In this document: positions 4,708 to 61,044 of the stretch, one piece after another
How positions within the stretch are numbered: position 1 is the stretch's first letter
Layout of the letters: every line of letters starts with the position of its first letter
Origin: a phage
Sequence record: NC_100327.1
Direction: 5' to 3' (one strand)
Length of the DNA: 64,000 nucleotides
Notes under the pieces: generated by a model
The model's database searches: none
Seen by the model: the letters and a program-made list of their open reading frames with translations, nothing else
What the model was told of the DNA's origin: nothing
Made by a program: the position numbers and the translations under genes

Positions 4708-5058
4708 TTATTTTGCATTCTTTCCTATATTGCCGCTACGGTACCAGCGTTTACGGTGAAAATGGTAATAATCACCATCGGCATTAAACATCAGATGATT
4801 TTCAATAACCAGCTTACGAAGGTGGGCCGGATCTTGTTCCATTCTTGCCAGATTCTGGCGGCTGTTACGTAAGCGGATAAATTCTATATTCAGGCCGTTG
4901 ATTGCAGCATGGATGTCAAAGTAACCACCTTTGAGACGTTCACGCATGGCGTTAAGCTCAACACAATATACAGATTTCTCACAAATCAAGGTATTAGCCA
5001 GGGCGCGGACCTGGGCAAGGGGGTTAAGCTCATTAAGGTAATATAGTTTTACTTTCAT
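4708..5058 (-). CDS. hypothetical protein (116 aa)
   Basis: ORF-track ORF; probably co-transcribed with 5076-5396. Confidence 0.5.
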   Translation of the reverse strand: MKVKLYYLNELNPLAQVRALANTLICEKSVYCVELNAMRERLKGGYFDIHAAINGLNIEFIRLRNSRQNLARMEQDPAHLRKLVIENHLMFNADGDYYHFHRKRWYRSGNIGKNAK

Positions 5059-6970: not shown

Positions 6971-7023
6971 AATGTTTTCCTCTTTGTTTTGTGTGGGGCA
7001 AACGTCTTGCCCCCTTGAGTTTT

Positions 7024-7051
7024 AATATAGCAGGTTTTTAGGTTATTGCAA
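7024..7051 (-). promoter_or_regulatory. sigma70-type promoter (TTGCAA, 16 bp, TATATT)
   Basis: Read on the minus strand; transcript would start just before the hairpin ggggcaaacgtcttgcccc. Confidence 0.4.
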
Positions 7052-41359: not shown

Positions 41360-41623
41360 ATGGCAACAGAGTTAAAATTTGCATCAAACCGTAAAACTAA
41401 GAAGTATCTGTCCTCAGTAGCTCCAGGCACTGTGGTGATGTTTGTTGATGAACTTGGGGATGTGAATACAGCACTTGTTGTAAAATCACATCCTGCAAAC
41501 ATATATGTTGGGGTATTTGACCTGTTCAGAAAGGTGTTTGTAGAACTGCCTCACAGTTTGGTTGTTACAGAAATGGATGCCTGCATAGAAATTCTTGGCG
41601 AAGTTATGGTGGAGGAACAATAA
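41360..41623 (+). CDS. small protein (87 aa), tandem paralog 1 of 4
   Basis: Aligns with the next gene (MAT..F.S..K.KK....GTVV....FDL....VTE.D..I.ILGE); stop/start overlap TAATG. Confidence 0.5.
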   Translation: MATELKFASNRKTKKYLSSVAPGTVVMFVDELGDVNTALVVKSHPANIYVGVFDLFRKVFVELPHSLVVTEMDACIEILGEVMVEEQ

Positions 41624-41886
41624 TGGCTACCAGCATTGTATTCAATTCTAAGGTGAAGAACAAAAAGCGTGCAGACAGTTTTCCGTGTGGGACCGTGGTA
41701 AGTTGCGACGGAGACGGCATTCAAAACATAGTTATGATTGTCAAAACAGGAGAACATTGTGTGTGGGGGTTCGATTTAGAAAATAATGAGTTGTACGATC
41801 TGCCGCCAAACATGAAAGTTACAGAGCTTGACACCAAAATTACCATCCTTGGAGAGACAAGCTATTCAAAAGAAGGAGGAGAATAA
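41623..41886 (+). CDS. small protein (87 aa), tandem paralog 2 of 4
   Basis: Same length and conserved blocks as paralog 1; translationally coupled. Confidence 0.5.
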   Translation: MATSIVFNSKVKNKKRADSFPCGTVVSCDGDGIQNIVMIVKTGEHCVWGFDLENNELYDLPPNMKVTELDTKITILGETSYSKEGGE

Positions 41887-42149
41887 TGACCACAAAAATC
41901 ACTATCGCAGAACCGAAAGCTAACACTCAGCCTATCGAAAAGTTTAAGTGCGGTGAGGTGGTAACATTCACACCAGATAATGAAGATGCTAAGATTTTCG
42001 CAATGGTCACAGCTGAGTGGATGTGTGACAACACCACACAGGTTCTGCGTTTTGACACCTATCTTACCGATGAAATCAGGAACGACAAGATTGTGACTGG
42101 TGTGGATACTGAGATTGTTTTCTACAAGAGCTTTTTAGAGGGTTTCTGA
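41886..42149 (+). CDS. small protein (87 aa), tandem paralog 3 of 4 (more divergent)
   Basis: Same length; CGEVV block; coupled start. Confidence 0.45.
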   Translation: MTTKITIAEPKANTQPIEKFKCGEVVTFTPDNEDAKIFAMVTAEWMCDNTTQVLRFDTYLTDEIRNDKIVTGVDTEIVFYKSFLEGF

Positions 42150-42150
42150 T

Positions 42151-42384
42151 ATGGCAAAAATTAGAAAATTATCTAGCAATCAGGTTGTGAAAGACTTCGA
42201 ATCTGGAGAGATTCTTTATGTTCGTGATGCAGATGACGAAGGTGAAGATCTCGTTATGTTGGTGGGGCACGCTGAGGACGGATGCATCCAAGCTGTTTTT
42301 CTTGAAACAGCTATGGTGCACTGGATAGAGCTGGACCTGAAAGCACGAAAACCTAAAGCAGAAATCCTGATTTACGAAGATTAA
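42151..42384 (+). CDS. small acidic protein (77 aa), probable divergent paralog 4
   Basis: Similar size and GEIL/LVMLV blocks; adjacent. Confidence 0.4.
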   Translation: MAKIRKLSSNQVVKDFESGEILYVRDADDEGEDLVMLVGHAEDGCIQAVFLETAMVHWIELDLKARKPKAEILIYED

Positions 42385-51537: not shown

Positions 51538-51566
51538 ATAAGAAAACCGCCCCGTCAGGAGCGGTT
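51538..51566 (-). terminator. Terminator-like hairpin
   Basis: Minus-strand hairpin ccgctcctgacggggcgg followed by TTTTCTTAT. Confidence 0.4.
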
Positions 51567-51573
51567 AGATATA

Positions 51574-53319
51574 TTAACGTTGTGCAATTACTACGTCTAC
51601 AATATCACCAACACCACAATACGTTAATTGCAGCAAGGTAACACTGTTAGCCTTGTTGTTAATAACAGGTGTTGCCGACAGGATAGCATACTTATCGTGC
51701 AAAGTCACGTTGTGACCTACAGCATCCTGAATGACATAGATAACTGCAGTGAATGGATAAGGTTTATCTTCCGCTGATGTCCCAGGCCACTGTCCTATTG
51801 TAAAATCCCCTTTCGCGTGGACAACATACATGCTGGCCTGCCCGTTAGGTGTCCATGTCCCACTGGACGCGTCAACCTCCTCTAAGTCAAAATCTACCTT
51901 TCCTGCGTGGAAAGTAGGGGCAGTAATGGTTTTACCCGCCTCAATTTCTTGAGAGGTGGTTATCTTACCACTGGAGTTAATGCCATTACAGACAAAGTTG
52001 ACATTAGAGAAGTCTGGCAGCCACCCGGTCACTGTGCCGGATATTTCAAGGTTGTGAAGGTAGGTGGTGCCAGTCCCTGCGGCGTTTAAACTAACATCTC
52101 CATTTACCTGCAAGTTTCTGGTAATGTTGCAGTTTTCAGAGTTTGCAGTTGTTGCAGTTAAAGTGGTGGTGGTTAGCTCGGTAATTGTACCTTTATTGGC
52201 TGTAAGCCCTTCTCCTTCAAAAGTTGCACGCTCATTGACTCTTAGAGTATTCAGAGCTATATTTTGGATAGAGGCTGTACCTCGAATAACTACAGACCCG
52301 CCAACCTCCAAATCGCCATTTATCAATGCATCACCCGTGCTTTCAATATAGCTAGGGTAGATCATGGTGCCATCGACAGAGTATGTTATCCCTGTAACGG
52401 TACCTGTCACCTCAAGGTTCTTAACCCTGGTGGTCCCATCGACCTGCAATGTCGGTTCGGTTGCTGCCTTCATGGCATTACCACGAATGTACACGTAGTC
52501 AAAAAAGTTATTACCCAGACCATCAAAATGCACATCGTTATTATTGGCCACTGGTTTCCCAGAAGTTATAGTGTCAGCTATAACCCTGTGGGTGGACACT
52601 TCATGAGGTTGCAGCTCTGTACTTCTCCAGTCTGCATGCTTAGGATCGCTCCACGCAAAAGTAAGTGTAGAAGTATTTGCCGTGAGGATTAGATTCCTAA
52701 AGCGTGCAGTAGAATCTGCCCCATTAACAGGTCCATGTAAGGTAAGGGTGCCACCAACTATAGTGTTAGCGAGTTCTGTAAGACCTTTTACCACCAAAGA
52801 CCCTACAGTAACTTTCATCCCCTCCATGGCTTTAAATATGCTATCAACATAGTCAACAACAAACTCTGTGTTTGCTATGGACTCTGACTTATCGTCCATT
52901 GGAGGTGTAGGTACTCGTGGGTCACCTTCGAACCTCGGGCTGTTAAGTTTTGCGTAGTATTTTGCCATTACTGCAGAGTCGGTATATAATCTCCAGTTTG
53001 GAGATTGTGAAGGATCTGCTGGCATTCTAACCGGGTTAGATTTTGATGCTGCGGGAGCGTACCACCACTGAGGGCCTGTGTCCCCTTTAAACTCGTACAG
53101 CTGGTTAAAAACTGTTGTGGATGCACCATACGCCCAAGGGATCGGTGGCGTTTTAAAATAAAGGTTGTCAAGCATGGCTTTTCGTACCGTAGGGATGGTG
53201 GTCCCATCCTCTACGACAACTTCATCCACAGCGTTACCGTTGACAACCAAGTGCAAACGTTCAGAATCAACAATTACTTGATCTACCGCCTGCTCAAAGC
53301 TTGTCATGTCTTGCGCCAT
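51574..53319 (-). CDS. putative tail fibre/tailspike protein (581 aa)
   Basis: Repetitive beta-rich segments (LEVTGTVTG, LQVNGDVSL, LEISGTVTG); structural-block context. Confidence 0.45.
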   Translation of the reverse strand: MAQDMTSFEQAVDQVIVDSERLHLVVNGNAVDEVVVEDGTTIPTVRKAMLDNLYFKTPPIPWAYGASTTVFNQLYEFKGDTGPQWWYAPAASKSNPVRMPADPSQSPNWRLYTDSAVMAKYYAKLNSPRFEGDPRVPTPPMDDKSESIANTEFVVDYVDSIFKAMEGMKVTVGSLVVKGLTELANTIVGGTLTLHGPVNGADSTARFRNLILTANTSTLTFAWSDPKHADWRSTELQPHEVSTHRVIADTITSGKPVANNNDVHFDGLGNNFFDYVYIRGNAMKAATEPTLQVDGTTRVKNLEVTGTVTGITYSVDGTMIYPSYIESTGDALINGDLEVGGSVVIRGTASIQNIALNTLRVNERATFEGEGLTANKGTITELTTTTLTATTANSENCNITRNLQVNGDVSLNAAGTGTTYLHNLEISGTVTGWLPDFSNVNFVCNGINSSGKITTSQEIEAGKTITAPTFHAGKVDFDLEEVDASSGTWTPNGQASMYVVHAKGDFTIGQWPGTSAEDKPYPFTAVIYVIQDAVGHNVTLHDKYAILSATPVINNKANSVTLLQLTYCGVGDIVDVVIAQR

Positions 53320-53328
53320 GATTTCTCC

Positions 53329-53595
53329 TTAAGCTTTTTGCTCTTCGTTTTTAACGTGGTCAGGGTGCTGGCAACCCCACCGGAGCGAGATGAATTTGCT
53401 AATAAGCTGGGGGCAAGCTACTGAAGGCGCGTATATCCACGCATACCATTCAGGAAGCGTATCATTATACCCCATATGAATAAACACCCCAGTCATCACC
53501 GCCATGCCTATGTTCGACCATAGCTTAGTTTGGGACACTTTCGTAGGGTCATCAGATGCCGCAACCAGTCCCCATAAAAACTGAGTTAGTTTCAT
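53329..53595 (-). CDS. small membrane protein (88 aa)
   Basis: Hydrophobic segment NIGMAVMTGVFIHMGY; follows the fibre paralog. Confidence 0.35.
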   Translation of the reverse strand: MKLTQFLWGLVAASDDPTKVSQTKLWSNIGMAVMTGVFIHMGYNDTLPEWYAWIYAPSVACPQLISKFISLRWGCQHPDHVKNEEQKA

Positions 53596-53606
53596 TTACC
53601 CTCTTT

Positions 53607-54650
53607 TTAAGCATAAGATATAGTGATCCATTGACCATTTACAAGTTTTTGGATAGCACCTGTCCAGTAGTCACCTTGATAAGGGTGTTTATAAGCGTAG
53701 TTACCAGAGCACATCACATGCCCAGGGTAGACTCTTGACTCTCTGTAGGTGGTTTTGAAACGGTTTGCTATCCTTACATCATCAACCCCTCTGCTAGGCA
53801 TAGGAATAGTAAGGTTACCACTACTGTCTGCGCCGTTACCATTTACCCTGCGGACCACGTTTCTTCCACCAACTGTTGCGTATTGGCCCCTGACGGTTTC
53901 ATCGTTACAATCAACTCTTCCACCTATTTGAGCGCTTCCGCAGGATTGTTGTCCATTAATAGTGGCTCTTGGTATCGTGACCGCATTGGCATTTGCAGAG
54001 GAACTTTTTGCATCGTTGCATTCAAGATTCCCTTGGATAGCCAGTCTTGCACGGTTGGCAGTTATAGCATTGAGCTTCATAGCCGAAAACACAGGCTGCC
54101 CACCAGAAGGTTGAAATCTCCAACGGAACCCGTCTATTTGGTGAGAAGGATCATCAAGGTCTGTGCCGTCAGCACCACCGATGTTGTCCATAATCCAGAA
54201 ATCCATCGTCGTCTTGTCTGGAGTTATGGTGGTATATATTGCCGCATTGTCTGTTGACGCAGATGCAAACTCGATTCTTTGAAGACCTAAAGTTTGAGTC
54301 TGAGTCATTATGTCTCCAGACTTGTCAATATATAGATCGTCCATTTCTTCAGGCGAGTATACATTGAGAACTTGACGTGCAGCAGCTTTGTCTGGAACGT
54401 CTGCTAGATTATTAGTGACCCTTAAGAATCTATTATCCCATCCTGGGACAACATCTTCTGTTAGATGCTTTAACCACGCAGAAAGCATGTGAAGTTCAAA
54501 GTTAACAACTTCACATGCCACTCTTTGTGTCATATCCCAACCTTTCAATCTCTCTTCTTTTTTTGGTTGAGACTTATTCAACTCTCCCGTATTTTCAAGC
54601 ACAACATCCTGATTGGCCCAAATATCAAGAGGGATAACTGGTTTAGTCAT
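53607..54650 (-). CDS. tail fibre protein, paralog of 55665-56705
   Basis: Shared N-terminus (IPLDIWA) and C-terminus (QKLVNGQWITISYA) with a divergent middle. Confidence 0.5.
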   Translation of the reverse strand: MTKPVIPLDIWANQDVVLENTGELNKSQPKKEERLKGWDMTQRVACEVVNFELHMLSAWLKHLTEDVVPGWDNRFLRVTNNLADVPDKAAARQVLNVYSPEEMDDLYIDKSGDIMTQTQTLGLQRIEFASASTDNAAIYTTITPDKTTMDFWIMDNIGGADGTDLDDPSHQIDGFRWRFQPSGGQPVFSAMKLNAITANRARLAIQGNLECNDAKSSSANANAVTIPRATINGQQSCGSAQIGGRVDCNDETVRGQYATVGGRNVVRRVNGNGADSSGNLTIPMPSRGVDDVRIANRFKTTYRESRVYPGHVMCSGNYAYKHPYQGDYWTGAIQKLVNGQWITISYA

Positions 54651-54739
54651 CGCGTTCTCCTGAGAAAATTCCTTAGGACTATTTTAACACTTTAGAGAAC
54701 AAAATGCAAGAACGGAGTCCTTTCCGTTCTGACCTTTGT

Positions 54740-55054
54740 TTACCTTTTACTATGCTCTACGAGCATGTGCAAAATCTTTTGTACATCAGCTCGGATACCG
54801 GAGACATCTGTCCTGACATCCTGCTTAAGGTCGTTAATATCGGCCTCTAGCTTGCTTAACCGGGTCTCGATAACGGAATCAAGTTTATCTTTTGTAACCA
54901 TACTGTTTTTCACTAAGATGAGGTCTTTCTCCAGTTCATCCAACCTCTTGGAAATGCCTTTCCATTTGGTGTGCCACTGGTTGAAAGCCCATACACAGAT
55001 CGGGACAACGGTACCCATGCAGATACCGTACAATGCCGCCAAATCCAACTCCAC
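54740..55054 (-). CDS. small membrane/coiled-coil protein (104 aa)
   Basis: N-terminal transmembrane segment ALYGICMGTVVPICVWAF, then a coiled-coil. Confidence 0.35.
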   Translation of the reverse strand: MELDLAALYGICMGTVVPICVWAFNQWHTKWKGISKRLDELEKDLILVKNSMVTKDKLDSVIETRLSKLEADINDLKQDVRTDVSGIRADVQKILHMLVEHSKR

Positions 55055-55065
55055 AACACCTCCTC

Positions 55066-55650
55066 TTAGAGGGTAGGTCGCTCCGGGAAGAAAATGTCAG
55101 GGGCTTTAGATGTATCTATTTCAAGAAGTTTTACCCTGTACATTTTCAAATCTCTGATGTTACGTTTCTGGTCATCAGTAAGATCATATTCAAGGTCAAT
55201 CATGTCTTGATAGGCACCAATTCTAGCAGTAGCCCAAGCAAGTTCTGTCTCTATGACACCCTCTGCCTGTTGAACAAAGAATTCATTGTCTGTGACAAAT
55301 TCATCACCAACTAAACGCAAAGCGTCGTGGTGAAGCATAATGTTTTCTGGTACCTCTTCTTTTTTGGCGATAACCACACGAAGACCTGGAGCAGGCCATA
55401 AGGCATCAGGTTCTTCTGTAGATGTCTTAAGAATTCCCTTTTCGTCAACAAGTAGGAAGATACAACCCGGATTTTCTTGTCGTAATGTTCTTGACTGCAC
55501 ATACCAATCGCCATCATCATTACGTAAAAAATACCCAGTGTATGCGGTGTAGTCCTCAACCTCTTGAGGGGTCAGCTCTTTGGTTTCCTTGTTGGCGTGG
55601 TATTCGCCAGATCCCGGTTGGTAAAGTTTAAACTCTTGGAGTATTTTCAT
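55066..55650 (-). CDS. tail fibre assembly protein (Tfa-type chaperone)
   Basis: C-terminus LKMYRVKLLEIDTSKAPDIFFPERP matches the Tfa family signature; directly downstream of a fibre gene. Confidence 0.7.
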   Translation of the reverse strand: MKILQEFKLYQPGSGEYHANKETKELTPQEVEDYTAYTGYFLRNDDGDWYVQSRTLRQENPGCIFLLVDEKGILKTSTEEPDALWPAPGLRVVIAKKEEVPENIMLHHDALRLVGDEFVTDNEFFVQQAEGVIETELAWATARIGAYQDMIDLEYDLTDDQKRNIRDLKMYRVKLLEIDTSKAPDIFFPERPTL

Positions 55651-55664
55651 GCTAGTCCTCCGAT

Positions 55665-56705
55665 CTATGCATAATTAACAGTGATCCATTGACCATTTAC
55701 AAGTTTTTGTAAAGGTCCTGCCCAGTAAGTTGAACCACGCATCTCTTTTTTGTCACCGAAATGCCAGCCTGTGACAACGTAGCCATTGCGGATTGGAGAC
55801 TCAGAAACGCCGTCCACAAGTCTTGCACCGATTCTGATGTCTTGCACACCTGTCTGCGGGATAGTGATCGTTACATCACCGTTACCGTTAGCCGTCACCC
55901 CGTTCACAGAGCGCACCACATTTCTGTTACCGACAACACAGTGCTGGCTTCTTACAACCATACTGTCACAACTTGCACCACCATTAACATATACTGACCC
56001 AGCCGTCAACTGACTAGCCACATTACAGTTGGTGAATGTTGCGGTATTGCTGATAGTAAGGTTATTGCACCTCATGTTATCGACAACTTCAACATTGCCT
56101 ACCACTTTCAACAGCGCACGGTTAGCCGTGATCGCGTTAAGGTACATCAAAGTGAACTCCGGATTAATATCCGGTTGAGTTGGCTGGAATCTCCAACGAA
56201 ACGCATCTATTGTAGATGTGCCACCATCATCAAACGCCCCAGTATTATCACTTAACCCAAAGTCGAGAGTTGTCTTATCTGGGCCAATAGTTGTCTCTAT
56301 CCAAGCCTTATCTGTCTCGGCAGCTTTAAAGTTGATACGTTGCAAACCCAATGGGCCTGTCATTGTATCACCTGTAACTTTTACATACCTGGCGTCTGCC
56401 TCTTCCTTAGTAATAATCCCAAGGTTTCTACGGGCAACAGGAATGTTCAAAAGATCACTCAAGTTATTATCACGTACCAGATAACGGCCTTCTTGAGCGG
56501 GGATCTGCTCGTCAGCAATGTATTTTGCCCAAGTTCCGAGCATATTGAAAATATAGTTAAGTTCTTCACATGAGGGCTTTTGACCAAGATCCCAACCTTT
56601 TCTCCACAAATCATCAATCGGGCGTAGCCTGTTCTGTCTGTGGGTGTTAGGCAGAACCTGATCCTCCTCTGCCCAAATCTCTAATGGAAAACTAGGTTTT
56701 GACAT
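55665..56705 (-). CDS. tail fibre protein (346 aa)
   Basis: N-terminus FPLEIWAEED, C-terminus QKLVNGQWITVNYA; followed by the Tfa gene. Confidence 0.55.
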   Translation of the reverse strand: MSKPSFPLEIWAEEDQVLPNTHRQNRLRPIDDLWRKGWDLGQKPSCEELNYIFNMLGTWAKYIADEQIPAQEGRYLVRDNNLSDLLNIPVARRNLGIITKEEADARYVKVTGDTMTGPLGLQRINFKAAETDKAWIETTIGPDKTTLDFGLSDNTGAFDDGGTSTIDAFRWRFQPTQPDINPEFTLMYLNAITANRALLKVVGNVEVVDNMRCNNLTISNTATFTNCNVASQLTAGSVYVNGGASCDSMVVRSQHCVVGNRNVVRSVNGVTANGNGDVTITIPQTGVQDIRIGARLVDGVSESPIRNGYVVTGWHFGDKKEMRGSTYWAGPLQKLVNGQWITVNYA

Positions 56706-56717
56706 TTTATCTCCTGA

Positions 56718-58790
56718 TTATGAGAAGTCTGGCGGGACAACATCTTCTACATACCCTTTCAGAGCAACCTGCCCCATATGAAGCACGGTAGAATCTCTAG
56801 CGGTAACAGTGATGCTGTCAGACATTACTTGCGGGTATGCCCACACATACTGTTTTACCTCAGGGTATCTATACTCTATAGTTGCCATGTTTCCGCAAAT
56901 ACATCTCCATAAAAATTCTTGGTAATTCCTAGTTGGGTCGTAACCATATACCGGAGCAAGCTCTTTACTAGGAACGAACCCTGTAAGGTATTGTATTTCA
57001 GACGGTTGCCAACCTAACTTAACGATAGGTATGTTTACAGACTCTTTTGCCTTTTCAATACCTCCCTGCATCACCCAATCGTAGCACTCGGTGCAGAAGA
57101 AATCAAGAGCACCTGCTTCCTTTTTATATTGGTCAGCAAGGTTAAGCTTTTGCGTAAGCTCGGTTTCCATAATGGTTGGGAAAAACAGCAGAGCTGTCAT
57201 CTGAGCTGATGCAGCGTGTGCCTTTATTGCCTTTGAAATAGCAGCAATACGAGCGCCAAGCTTACCACGACAAAATGCTACATACTTATCGTAAACACCG
57301 CCAGTTTTAGGATCGTCAATAGTCCCAATATCTAATGCATACTCGCCTGTCTCATCATAAAACGCCTGTTTTGTAGGGTAATCATAAATACAAGGTCTAC
57401 GAGTATCGGTATTGTACCACCACCACGGTTCACCAACCTGCATAATCACTGGCAGGTTGTTTCTCATAGCGGCTGATGCAAAATTCTTAAATACTGCAGT
57501 AAGGAAATTCATACCCTCTTCAATGGTTGGAGACAGGAGGTAGCTACAAGGTGTATACCCTGTTTTAGCGTAGTTATCGTTCCAGTCTCTTTGGGTCCAT
57601 TCCAACGGGCAGGCATCGCTGAAAAGCTCAAAACTTACAGATTGCATAACGTCGAAGTTATGTCGTTTGGCATTGTACATAAAATCATCATGCCATTTAT
57701 AAGCTGCAGCGTTTAGCGCTCCTGTTCTGTTTATAGACCATTGGGTTCCTGACCATGTGTAGTCATAATAATGACTCATACCAACATAATGGTTTATGGT
57801 TCCGGTATAGCCCAGACGCTTGATATTGTTCAACACCCTTAAAGGGGACACGTTCCACATATCGTCATATGCGGTGCAGATCCCAACGTCGTGCTCTCTC
57901 ACCTGGATATTATTAAGTTGCATCATTTTCCAGCCTGTGTCTGGCTGAAGCAGATCTAGGCGCAACTCACACTCTACATTTTCCGTTCTTGGATCTGTGC
58001 TATTACTTACCCAGTCTTTAGGCATAAGTGGTATTAAAATCCTTCTCACCTGCCGAGGATCAACACCCATCATGTTGTTGTTCTGGTCCATCCCGACGCA
58101 GTCCTCAAAATCAATATGAATTTCTGCAACATTTTTATCCTCTGAGATGCTGACAGCATATTGAGCTAAAGGAACATAGATGATTGTGCCATCAACAAGG
58201 TCTACAGTCATAATCATCTTTTCAGGAGTGGAGAAGTTGCTGGCGTTGGTTATTGACATTCTGAACCAAAGCTTGGTGTTTCTCATCTCATAGTGATCAT
58301 CAAACCCAATACCGAAATGGTCATACTTGTCAACTGTTTCCCAAATGCACCCAGCCATACCTCCATATGTTCTTGACACTAAACGGTTAATACAACAGTT
58401 GTTATCTGCAACAATACAGGTACTTTCAGTCTGCTGAGTGGTTGTAACCCAATATCTTGGGTGAAACATTCTCTCCTCAACAGTATCCCAAGATATCCTG
58501 TCAAGATTCTCATCTGAAACTATTGTACATTTCGCCCTTTGTGTTCCAATCATCACTCCTTGAGATTTTGATGAAAACTCCATAAAGAAGCTTCTTGGCA
58601 ACCTGTTGGGTAATTTGTCAACAATTTCCACTGGGATCTCAATACTGGTTGCCCCAACTGGGATAGTTACATCGCCCTCAACATGATCATAATCTCTACC
58701 AGGAACGGCAGTATCCTGAACTGTGCGGTAATGAAACTGTGCAGCCATTGTAGAGTAATCACGGTAAGGTTTAAAAACAGCTGTTGCCAT
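56718..58790 (-). CDS. putative tail/baseplate-associated structural protein (690 aa)
   Basis: Long ORF in the structural operon; aromatic-rich. Confidence 0.4.
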   Translation of the reverse strand: MATAVFKPYRDYSTMAAQFHYRTVQDTAVPGRDYDHVEGDVTIPVGATSIEIPVEIVDKLPNRLPRSFFMEFSSKSQGVMIGTQRAKCTIVSDENLDRISWDTVEERMFHPRYWVTTTQQTESTCIVADNNCCINRLVSRTYGGMAGCIWETVDKYDHFGIGFDDHYEMRNTKLWFRMSITNASNFSTPEKMIMTVDLVDGTIIYVPLAQYAVSISEDKNVAEIHIDFEDCVGMDQNNNMMGVDPRQVRRILIPLMPKDWVSNSTDPRTENVECELRLDLLQPDTGWKMMQLNNIQVREHDVGICTAYDDMWNVSPLRVLNNIKRLGYTGTINHYVGMSHYYDYTWSGTQWSINRTGALNAAAYKWHDDFMYNAKRHNFDVMQSVSFELFSDACPLEWTQRDWNDNYAKTGYTPCSYLLSPTIEEGMNFLTAVFKNFASAAMRNNLPVIMQVGEPWWWYNTDTRRPCIYDYPTKQAFYDETGEYALDIGTIDDPKTGGVYDKYVAFCRGKLGARIAAISKAIKAHAASAQMTALLFFPTIMETELTQKLNLADQYKKEAGALDFFCTECYDWVMQGGIEKAKESVNIPIVKLGWQPSEIQYLTGFVPSKELAPVYGYDPTRNYQEFLWRCICGNMATIEYRYPEVKQYVWAYPQVMSDSITVTARDSTVLHMGQVALKGYVEDVVPPDFS

Positions 58791-59487: not shown

Positions 59488-60978
59488 TTAAATAGTTTGT
59501 TGGAAAGTTATATTACTTTCGTCGAGGTCAAACACCTCGGTCATGTTCGCAACAATATCGTTTGTAGTGTAAGCTTCATCAGAAGCTCCTACGGATTTAA
59601 CTTGAATTACCAGTCTATTAAATCTGCCTATTGACACAGCAGCGGATGCAGCACCGACCAATTGGATATTGTATAACGTATCTGCAACATCCAGTCCGTT
59701 AACAACCTGCAAAAGAGCCTCTACAATGGCATCTTTTTCGGTTGTGGAAAGCGCAGCACCGGAGTAGGTAATTCTTACATCCAAGCGGTAGGTATTTGCC
59801 TTGGAGTAATAAATTCTTTCAGTTTGACCGTCAGATGTAGTGACATCGTAGAAAATATTACCATAAGTCCTGTTCGTACAGGCTATAGTTTGGTAAAGTG
59901 CTTGGCAAATGTCCTCCGTTGCACCACCAAACACAACCACTTGGAACTTGTAAGGAGGTATACCTTTAGCATCAGTTTTATCAGTGTTGTTGGAGAACAC
60001 TCTCACTTTCTCAACACCTTTCACCTCGCTTACAGCGCTAAGGATTGCAGGACGGGTAGCCTTCGATGTTAACTGTTTTGTGCTGGAAGCTCTTAAGCGA
60101 TACTCTGAGTCTTTCTCAACATCCCTGCCCTCATTGAATCTTTCTCTGTTGGTAAGCTTGATAAATCCACTGGGAGTAGGTGACATTGTTGTCACGGTTT
60201 CTGCCTCTCTTGACAGCTCACCAGCCTCGTTAGCGATAACATCTAGGGTGATAGTTCTTTCCCCTACAATCGGAGATACTCTGAAATCTACCCTACTATT
60301 AAGTCCAACTTGATCAAGATTCGAATTGTACCCTATCCACAACGTTCCTGTCAACATATCGATCTGAATCAAATCGTCGTTCAACAGGGTTGTATTATCG
60401 ACAATGAACTGCTTAATCTCTCCGTAAAAGCTTGGCAGATCAGAGGAGTCCAGAGACTTATCTGTTAAAACCAGACTTTTTGTTTTGATACTTCCATCTG
60501 TCTGGTTGGTGATTTGAAAGTTGTATTTACCAATCCTTAGGTCTGGAGCATTTATTCTGTGGGCAATAAGATTCCCTGCCACCTGCACATCATTGCTAAG
60601 AACAAAGTTGCCACTATCCAGCGTATAAGTTTTGGAATCATAAATCATATTGTACGGCACAGTTGTGTTGATTGTCAACTGGCAGGTACCTGATGATTTA
60701 GAACGGCCTCTTCGGTAAATACCCTGTCTTCCAAGAAGCTCATCCAGGTAAATACCTTCTGCCCCATACAGCGTCTGTGATGCGTATACAGATGCTGCCA
60801 TAAGAATAAGTTGATACTCTCGCTCGTTGAAGATAGTGGTCAGCTTATCTGCAACGGAGTTACTCTGTACGTTGAAGTTTTCGCCAAAAGCACGGATCAG
60901 GCTTTGCTTAGTTTCAACGATTAGGTCATTTAGGGTTGGTATAACGAAACCAGCCTCTGTCAATCCATACTTAGCCAC
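59488..60978 (-). CDS. putative baseplate protein (496 aa, J-like by position)
   Basis: Lies between the hub/central-fibre gene and the fibre genes. Confidence 0.4.
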   Translation of the reverse strand: MAKYGLTEAGFVIPTLNDLIVETKQSLIRAFGENFNVQSNSVADKLTTIFNEREYQLILMAASVYASQTLYGAEGIYLDELLGRQGIYRRGRSKSSGTCQLTINTTVPYNMIYDSKTYTLDSGNFVLSNDVQVAGNLIAHRINAPDLRIGKYNFQITNQTDGSIKTKSLVLTDKSLDSSDLPSFYGEIKQFIVDNTTLLNDDLIQIDMLTGTLWIGYNSNLDQVGLNSRVDFRVSPIVGERTITLDVIANEAGELSREAETVTTMSPTPSGFIKLTNRERFNEGRDVEKDSEYRLRASSTKQLTSKATRPAILSAVSEVKGVEKVRVFSNNTDKTDAKGIPPYKFQVVVFGGATEDICQALYQTIACTNRTYGNIFYDVTTSDGQTERIYYSKANTYRLDVRITYSGAALSTTEKDAIVEALLQVVNGLDVADTLYNIQLVGAASAAVSIGRFNRLVIQVKSVGASDEAYTTNDIVANMTEVFDLDESNITFQQTI

Positions 60979-61044
60979 GTCACTCCTCCGGTATGAAAAT
61001 CTCTACAAGGTATTTTACCAAATTTTGTAACAATAGTCAATCTG

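Follow-up and report, generated by a model that had tools for sequence, protein, structure and literature searches.

Does a coliphage that carries two short tail-fibre genes at one locus use them to recognize two different receptors? The question arises from the phage sequence NC_100327.1, of which a stretch of 64,000 nucleotides (the window) was analysed here, and in which positions 53607-56705 begin and end with two related fibre genes that we call copy A and copy B. A sequence-only reading of the window had described them as a duplicated tail-fibre module, each fibre having a different partner downstream, and had taken the layout to suggest two receptor specificities. We consider it probable that the locus is best explained by an ancestral-type fibre, copy A, accompanied by an old paralog, copy B, which belongs to Vequintavirus and a sister lineage, occupies a variable slot in the gene order and has a diverged tip. 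Two receptor specificities are plausible from the protein sequences, because both fibres are intact and appear to be constrained and their distal parts differ.

Two short tail-fibre genes in an rV5-like locus

The two predicted fibre paralogs are present as full-length open reading frames on the minus strand, which also carries the other genes and motifs of the locus, from gp28 to the wedge gene. Copy A occupies exactly positions 55665-56705 (346 amino acids) and copy B exactly positions 53607-54650 (347 amino acids), and the products are 43% identical over their whole length (BLASTP E value 2e-94). Both match the family PHROG 4465, "tail fiber protein", at profile positions 1-342 of 342, with E values of 2e-171 for copy A and 7e-166 for copy B. 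The paralogs had also been said to share their N- and C-termini and to differ in the central region, and this did not hold. The best-conserved block is central (residues 106-220, 50-70% identity), the ends are conserved only over residues 1-20 and the last ∼21 residues, and the most divergent stretches are residues 46-105, 205-245 (20% identity) and 291-325. The predicted secondary-structure pattern is the same in the two copies.

The 8.5 kb surrounding the fibre locus show 99.8% DNA identity to Escherichia phage rV5_ev168, and the locus is 98.4% identical to that of phage V5. Identity is at least 95% in ∼106 of 121 matched records, and where these have a taxonomy line it mostly names Vequintavirus. 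Gene lengths, order and coordinates agree with gp28 to gp34 of rV5 (rV5 Table S3), a layout also matched by the annotations of the BASEL phages. The locus encodes the short tail fibres of an rV5-like coliphage of the genus Vequintavirus, and copies A and B are gp33 and gp30, respectively. As a side observation, 16 records named "Campylobacter phage" (for example MG065635, MG065654 and MG065666; the host is given as Campylobacter jejuni in 15) also match the locus, with 98-99% identity in the 7 that were listed; these are probably coliphages with a mislabelled host or contaminating coliphages.

The pair of fibres and the idea of two receptors have both been published (2013 and 2021), and we offer no new concept here. 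Kropinski et al. 2013 (PMC3606486) reported 42.3% identity between gp30 and gp33, noted their resemblance to short tail fibres and the HHpred similarity of both to T4 gp12, and proposed two lipopolysaccharide (LPS) chemotypes for them. Maffei et al. 2021 (PMC8594841, S5D Fig) described two paralogous short tail fibres and a chaperone, homologous to GpS and GpU of phage Mu, and a single fibre copy in phi92-like phages and Phapecoctavirus. The rV5 proteins gp30, gp33 and gp32 are the same object as the one studied here, with nothing different in the object itself. The details that we add to the published picture are the insertion slot between gp31 and gp29, an altered docking domain in gp30, gene conversion at the 3′ ends of the fibre genes, and a hairpin and promoter-like motif before gp30. 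As to the relationship with T4 gp12, our phmmer searches of the PDB returned no gp12 chain at E values of up to 1, and the fibres had no Pfam match.

For the question of which copy is ancestral, A-type and B-type sequences were compared with 26 other homologues, a column being counted as conserved if it was at least 85% conserved among the latter. Mean identity to the homologues was 42% for copy A and 34% for copy B, and over residues 1-70 it was 60% and 40%, respectively. Of 89 conserved columns, 18 are changed in B-type sequences, 10 of them within residues 9-62, and 9 are changed in A-type sequences, none before residue 88. All 12 family-invariant residues up to W59 are retained in both copies. 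Searches of the PDB gave a corresponding picture: residues 1-108 of copy A match the N-terminus of the phiTE short tail fibre (9CUY, E value 1e-19) and residues 286-343 match the Mu fibre S (5YVQ, S residues 440-501, E value 2e-6); residues 1-83 of copy B match the phiTE fibre (9CUY, E value 2e-8), and the copy B tip had no sequence match to Mu S in the PDB. These comparisons identify copy A as an orthologue, of ancestral type, of phi92 gp147 (fibre III), and as a fibre of the Mu S type.

Copy B is old and appears to be constrained. Both copies are intact and full-length in ∼116 Vequintavirus records, and two fibre copies per record were found only in this genus and in a sister lineage (contigs L007 to L009), which has the same seven-gene layout and in which copy A is 87% and copy B 78% identical to the window. 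Copy A has a non-synonymous divergence (dN) of 0.094 between the window and L007, compared with 0.161 for copy B and 0.149 for the Tfa-type chaperone gene. Synonymous divergence (dS) is saturated between these two lineages, so that only dN, and the bound that dN is far below dS, can be reported. Copy B thus evolves ∼1.7 times faster than copy A, and in both the maximum of dN falls in residues 206-290. Because dN is low while dS is saturated, both fibres appear to be under purifying selection.

The faster evolution of copy B might be read as a sign of a duplicate that is decaying or non-structural and has no use in the virion, and the smaller number of records in which it is at least 99% identical (36, compared with 93 for copy A) could be taken in the same way, as could its absence from the rV5 mass-spectrometry table, although copy A is not there either. 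However, all of the ∼116 Vequintavirus records and the sister lineage have an intact, full-length copy B reading frame, dN is only 0.16 against a saturated dS, the substitutions specific to B-type sequences are conserved between the lineages, and a late-promoter-like motif (described below) stands upstream of the gene. We regard decay as extremely improbable.

The slot between gp31 and gp29

The Tfa-type assembly chaperone that had been predicted after the first fibre was readily confirmed. The gene (rV5 gp32, 55066-55650, 194 amino acids) begins 14 nucleotides past the stop codon of copy A, and its product scores 45.8 bits against Pfam Caudo_TAP (PF02413; cut-off 22.1), the match covering residues 121-192. 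It also matches PHROG 136 (E value 2e-36) and is 31-32% identical to the Tfa proteins of phi92 (gp148) and NINP13076. The Tfa proteins of Mu and Pam3 bind the fibre tip with a variable N-terminal domain, and trimerization is driven by their conserved C-terminal domain; this mechanism fits the position of the Pfam match on gp32. No Tfa gene follows copy B, and gp32 is the sole chaperone gene among the nine open reading frames of the locus that were scanned. What has been duplicated is accordingly the fibre gene alone and not a module, and we infer that gp32 serves both fibres.

The two small genes of the locus differ in how well they fit their earlier description. The small membrane or coiled-coil protein expected between the fibres is gp31 (54740-55054, 104 amino acids), which indeed has one N-terminal hydrophobic helix (residues 5-23, Kyte-Doolittle value 1.91; entered as "1 TMD" in rV5 Table S3) followed by a charged helical tail that resembles a coiled coil, and which matches PHROG 5345, a family with no function assigned there (E value 1e-48). 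The second fibre had been said to be followed by a small membrane protein. An open reading frame of 88 amino acids, gp29 (53329-53595), is found at this place, but it is weakly hydrophobic, its best 19-residue Kyte-Doolittle window reaching 1.05, no convincing transmembrane helix was found in it, and the rV5 annotation table gives no transmembrane domain for it. The label "membrane protein" stems from PHROG 1322 (E value 1e-32) and from orthologues that are more hydrophobic.

Comparison with phages that carry a single short fibre argues that neither small gene belongs to either fibre. Orthologues of gp31 and gp29 occur in the single-fibre relatives Mydovirus KpS8, Seunavirus EC152 and NINP13076 and in the metagenomic lineage L010. 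In KpS8, EC152 and NINP13076 the order is wedge gene, baseplate protein gene, fibre gene, Tfa gene, and then genes for proteins of 104 amino acids, 157 amino acids and ∼90 amino acids and for a fibre of 586-602 amino acids. The 104-amino acid proteins are 32-33% identical to gp31, whose orthologues in single-fibre phages have 104-107 amino acids and the same position, and the ∼90-amino acid proteins are 53-59% identical to gp29 (53-61% for the orthologues of all the single-fibre phages). In L010 a 107-amino acid gp31-like gene directly adjoins a 124-amino acid gp29-like gene, the product of which, we observed, is extended at its C-terminus by a stretch rich in Tyr, Ser and Asp. Among the relatives examined the gp29-type gene is always followed directly by the gp28-type fibre gene, the arrangement in phi92 being different.

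The gp31-type and gp29-type genes thus enclose a variable slot (the regions compared included L010:7706-8400 and L004:5536-6609). It is empty in L010, is occupied by copy B in Vequintavirus and contains the 157-amino acid gene in Mydovirus, Seunavirus and Certrevirus. The 157-amino acid gene was found in 107 phage records, none of them Vequintavirus. We considered whether it might be the remnant of a fibre copy and rejected this, as its product is predicted to have several transmembrane helices and does not resemble the fibres. Since the order of gp31 and gp29 is the same in the single-fibre relatives, the two are, as judged from gene order, a conserved gene pair split by the insertion of copy B and not partners of either fibre, and the "different downstream partners" of the earlier description fall away.

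That description would amount to two complete modules, with Tfa serving copy A and gp29, gp31 or both acting as an alternative chaperone or partner for copy B. The adjacency of the genes in the window and the lack of a Tfa gene belonging to copy B speak for such an arrangement, and against it stand not only the gene order and the constant association of the gp29-type gene with the gp28-type fibre gene but also the proteins themselves. Neither gp29 nor gp31 gave a chaperone-family signal in Pfam, PHROGs or NCBIfam; in NCBIfam there was nothing for gp29 and only chance-level matches for gp31 (E values 0.025-0.067, far below the cut-off), and the phage records found with the two proteins by tblastn labelled them only as "hypothetical", "membrane" or "structural". 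Virion proteomics of Septuagintavirus W70 detected the short fibre, the gp28-type fibre and the wedge protein, and did not detect the homologues of Tfa and of the small proteins. We judge that two complete modules are highly improbable.

A role of gp31 or gp29 in lysis, as holin or i-spanin, was also considered and left unsupported. The product of gp31 has a weak match to XhlA (E value 0.016), its phi92 homologue has a weak match to an Rz-like PHROG (E value 9e-4), and there are weak hints of a coiled coil. The flanks of the gp31 helix are acidic on the N-terminal side and basic after it, suggesting an N-out, C-in topology, the opposite of that of an i-spanin. No linkage to an endolysin gene was found, both genes lying within the fibre operon in all relatives examined, and the rV5 endolysin, gp89, is encoded elsewhere in the genome (Kropinski 2013, PMC3606486).

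The slot is also marked in the spacing of the genes. All junctions of the locus are of 15 nucleotides or fewer, except for a gap of 89 nucleotides (54651-54739) before copy B. Just past the stop codon of gp31 the terminator scan found a hairpin (54730-54709) with an 8-base-pair stem followed by the T-rich run TGCATTTTGT, and the RNA fold of this hairpin has a z-score of -3.05; its counterpart in L007 has another hairpin sequence with the same run, CTTGCATTTT, after it. The hairpin is followed by TGTTAAAATA (54689-54680), which lies 30 nucleotides upstream of the copy B start codon and has one mismatch to the rV5 late-gene motif TggTAaAAtA (Kropinski 2013, PMC3606486). The window has 4 copies of the motif TGNTAAAATA; each is on the minus strand, shortly before a gene start and outside the open reading frames listed for that strand, and one of them (61011-61020) is 33 nucleotides before the wedge gene. 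In L007 the promoter-like motif before copy B is conserved as TGCTAAAATA. Because of the hairpin and the late-promoter-like motif in the upstream gap, we predict that copy B probably starts a late transcript of its own, which would also cover gp29 and gp28.

Shared ends, diverged tips and the receptor question

The 3′ ends of the two fibre genes, which are ∼2 kb apart, have in common an exact block of 30 nucleotides (55680-55709 in copy A and 53622-53651 in copy B) that encodes QKLVNGQWIT. Within the last 21 codons, 11 of 13 identical residues are specified by the same codon, compared with 42 of 129 elsewhere. In L007 (blocks at about 4934-4962 and 6999-7027) and in L009 both copies share three synonymous differences from the window (CTG, GTC and CAG); single-base exceptions to such co-variation were seen in copy A of L002 and of L008. 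Its co-variation within genomes indicates that gene conversion keeps the last ∼10 codons of copies A and B identical. The loci of phi92, Mydovirus and Seunavirus lack the block even when up to 8 mismatches are allowed, and the idea that it is a more widespread recombination site is for this reason not supported.

A homogenized C-terminus raises the possibility that the two proteins co-assemble, with mixed trimers of A and B nucleated at the common C-terminal strand by the single Tfa protein to give one composite fibre. The near identity of the last ∼21 residues would be in keeping with this, as would the single chaperone gene for two fibre genes and the common pattern of predicted secondary structure. 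However, the long stretches that would have to intertwine are only 20-37% identical and include insertions and deletions, upstream of copy B lie a terminator-like hairpin and a promoter-like motif of its own, and no precedent was found in the literature searched. Co-assembly is in our estimate very unlikely.

At the other end of the protein, residues 1-90 are the counterpart of the domain that, in the phiTE structure, makes up a globular joint on wedge protein 1, and also of the part of phi92 gp147 fitted into the fibre III density under the wedge protein gp145 (PMC13450770). By analogy, the Baseplate_J-type wedge protein encoded at 59488-60978 (rV5 gp36; Pfam Baseplate_J E value 4e-9, PHROG 6) is likely to be the docking partner of the short fibre. 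The docking domain of copy B looks like an altered yet maintained interface, and not like decay, since the B-specific substitutions are conserved in L007 to L009. The changes at 10 docking positions that are otherwise conserved, and the conservation of these changes between lineages, could further mean that copy B attaches at a second site and does not compete for the wedge site. The virion would then carry two full sets of short fibres of different LPS-core specificity, and gene conversion would keep both compatible with the shared Tfa. We put this forward only tentatively, as a possibility somewhat on the unlikely side.

It is the tips that bear most directly on the receptor. The tip of copy A (its last ∼60 residues) has 55-56% identity to those of phi92 gp147 and of the Seunavirus NINP13076 fibre, and these three share the motifs GVSES and TGW.FG.KKE.RG. 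The copy B tip lacks both motifs, and its identity to these three tips is 36-44% (44% to that of copy A). Published genetic data show that Vequintavirus requires the genes of the N4 glycan receptor together with the LPS core genes waaG, waaF and waaY.

Both fibres might nevertheless bind the same LPS-core sugar, the duplication serving to raise avidity or to populate a second set of sites on the baseplate. The Vequintavirinae tested all rely on the same core sugars via waaC and waaG, and notable allelic variation was found in neither paralog (Maffei 2021, PMC8594841); the four Vequintavirus phages of another study all had one receptor profile. On the other hand, the tips are only 44% identical and the two motifs are missing from copy B, the distal residues 205-245 have 20% identity, and a divergence that is maintained under purifying selection fits different ligands better. 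A single shared receptor is in our view rather unlikely.

We therefore return to the explanation given at the outset, of an ancestral copy A and an old, inserted copy B, which would work as follows. The first ∼90 residues of copy A would dock on the baseplate wedge, its Mu S-like tip would bind the LPS core and so lead to irreversible adsorption, and the adjacent Tfa, gp32, would assist its folding. Copy B would have been inserted into the variable slot between gp31 and gp29 and retained under purifying selection, and its diverged tip would most likely recognize a different LPS-core epitope or variant. The identity of the locus and its history, the paralogy of the fibres, the selection pattern and the gene conversion are shown by the sequence comparisons; the presence of both fibres in the virion, their binding to different receptors and the place where copy B docks are inferred.

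Several points weigh against this explanation or parts of it. We found no direct evidence for both fibres in virions. According to the main text of the rV5 study (PMC3606486), virion proteomics detected gp30, gp32 and gp33, but the supplementary mass-spectrometry table (Additional file 5) lists 19 proteins with none of gp29 to gp33 among them. Literature searches found neither Vequintavirus virion proteomics in the other candidate papers nor work that separates gp30 from gp33. Maffei 2021 (PMC8594841) reported almost no allelic variation in either paralog and favoured one shared terminal receptor. The promoter and terminator before copy B are consensus-level predictions. Monomer AlphaFold2 models of the two fibres were poor (predicted local distance difference test scores of 63 and 60); that of copy B gave no significant fold match, and the sole significant Foldseek match of the equally poor copy A model was to 5yvq_A, the Mu fibre-chaperone complex (E value 5e-6). 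Since the models are poor and that of copy B is without a fold match, our statements about tips and docking are drawn from sequence.

Members of Vequintavirus are among the most commonly isolated coliphages, and are candidates for therapy and biocontrol since they get past the O-antigen. To know whether the two short fibres confer two specificities for the terminal receptor would help to predict the routes by which LPS-core mutations give resistance and would guide host-range engineering.

Neighbouring genes and related systems

The short-fibre genes are flanked by genes for larger fibres. Upstream lies gp34 (56718-58790, 690 amino acids), a fibre with Calx-beta and non-contractile-tail-sheath (NCTSP) TIM-barrel domains (Pfam PF23845, E value 9e-80; PF23844, E value 8e-13). 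In relatives this type is the deacetylase-type fibre linked in the literature to the N4 glycan receptor, and its gene is also present in lineage L010, which carries one short fibre only. Downstream lies gp28 (51574-53319, 581 amino acids), a fibre of the phiTE gp241 type (PHROG 4549, E value 5e-252), which is 41-44% identical to the 586-602-amino acid fibres of KpS8, EC152 and NINP13076; a gp28 orthologue carries PF26208 and PF26209. Between gp28 and the gene for gp27 (1878 amino acids) we noted a strong terminator-like hairpin at 51545-51566, which has 9 base pairs (6 GC) and TTCTTATCTG after it. Contigs of the sister lineage differ from one another in the large distal fibre gene that lies downstream of gp28 (L007:9124-13044 compared with L008 and L009), with open reading frames of 475, 183 and 1209 amino acids in one contig and a single frame of ∼1876 amino acids in another; this fits the known allelic variation of large lateral fibres. 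Elsewhere in the window, a divergently transcribed block on the plus strand (41360-42384) has four tandem small open reading frames of 87, 87, 87 and 77 amino acids, the first two 39% identical (E value 1e-12), forming a small array of tandem paralogs.

Among known systems, phi92 (Justusliebigvirus) resembles the locus in having an orthologous short fibre, gp147, and a Tfa, gp148, encoded downstream of the wedge genes, and the gp147 tip is 55-60% identical to that of copy A. Cryo-electron microscopy of phi92 (PMC13450770) placed gp147, as fibre III, in six trimers beneath the C-terminal domain of the wedge protein gp145 and proposed that it acts in irreversible adsorption. However, phi92 has a single fibre copy with no counterpart of copy B, and its gp29-type gene (gp144) is elsewhere, upstream of the wedge gene. 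The fibre of phiTE (Certrevirus, 9CUY) has an N-terminal docking domain homologous to that of both copies, but it is a single-copy protein of 554 amino acids with a coiled-coil shaft and immunoglobulin-like distal domains, for which flagella binding has been proposed. The likeness to T4 gp12 is one of function, gp12 being a fibre of the baseplate whose binding to the LPS core makes adsorption irreversible, although it uses gp57A and not Tfa and is folded under the baseplate before triggering. Phage Mu (5YVQ) is like copy A in that the fibre gene, S, is followed by a gene, U, for a Tfa-type chaperone with the conserved C-terminal domain. Mu obtains its second specificity by inversion of the G segment, which swaps the S-tip and U genes, whereas in the locus described here two full-length fibre genes, the second without a detectable Mu S match, coexist with one chaperone gene.

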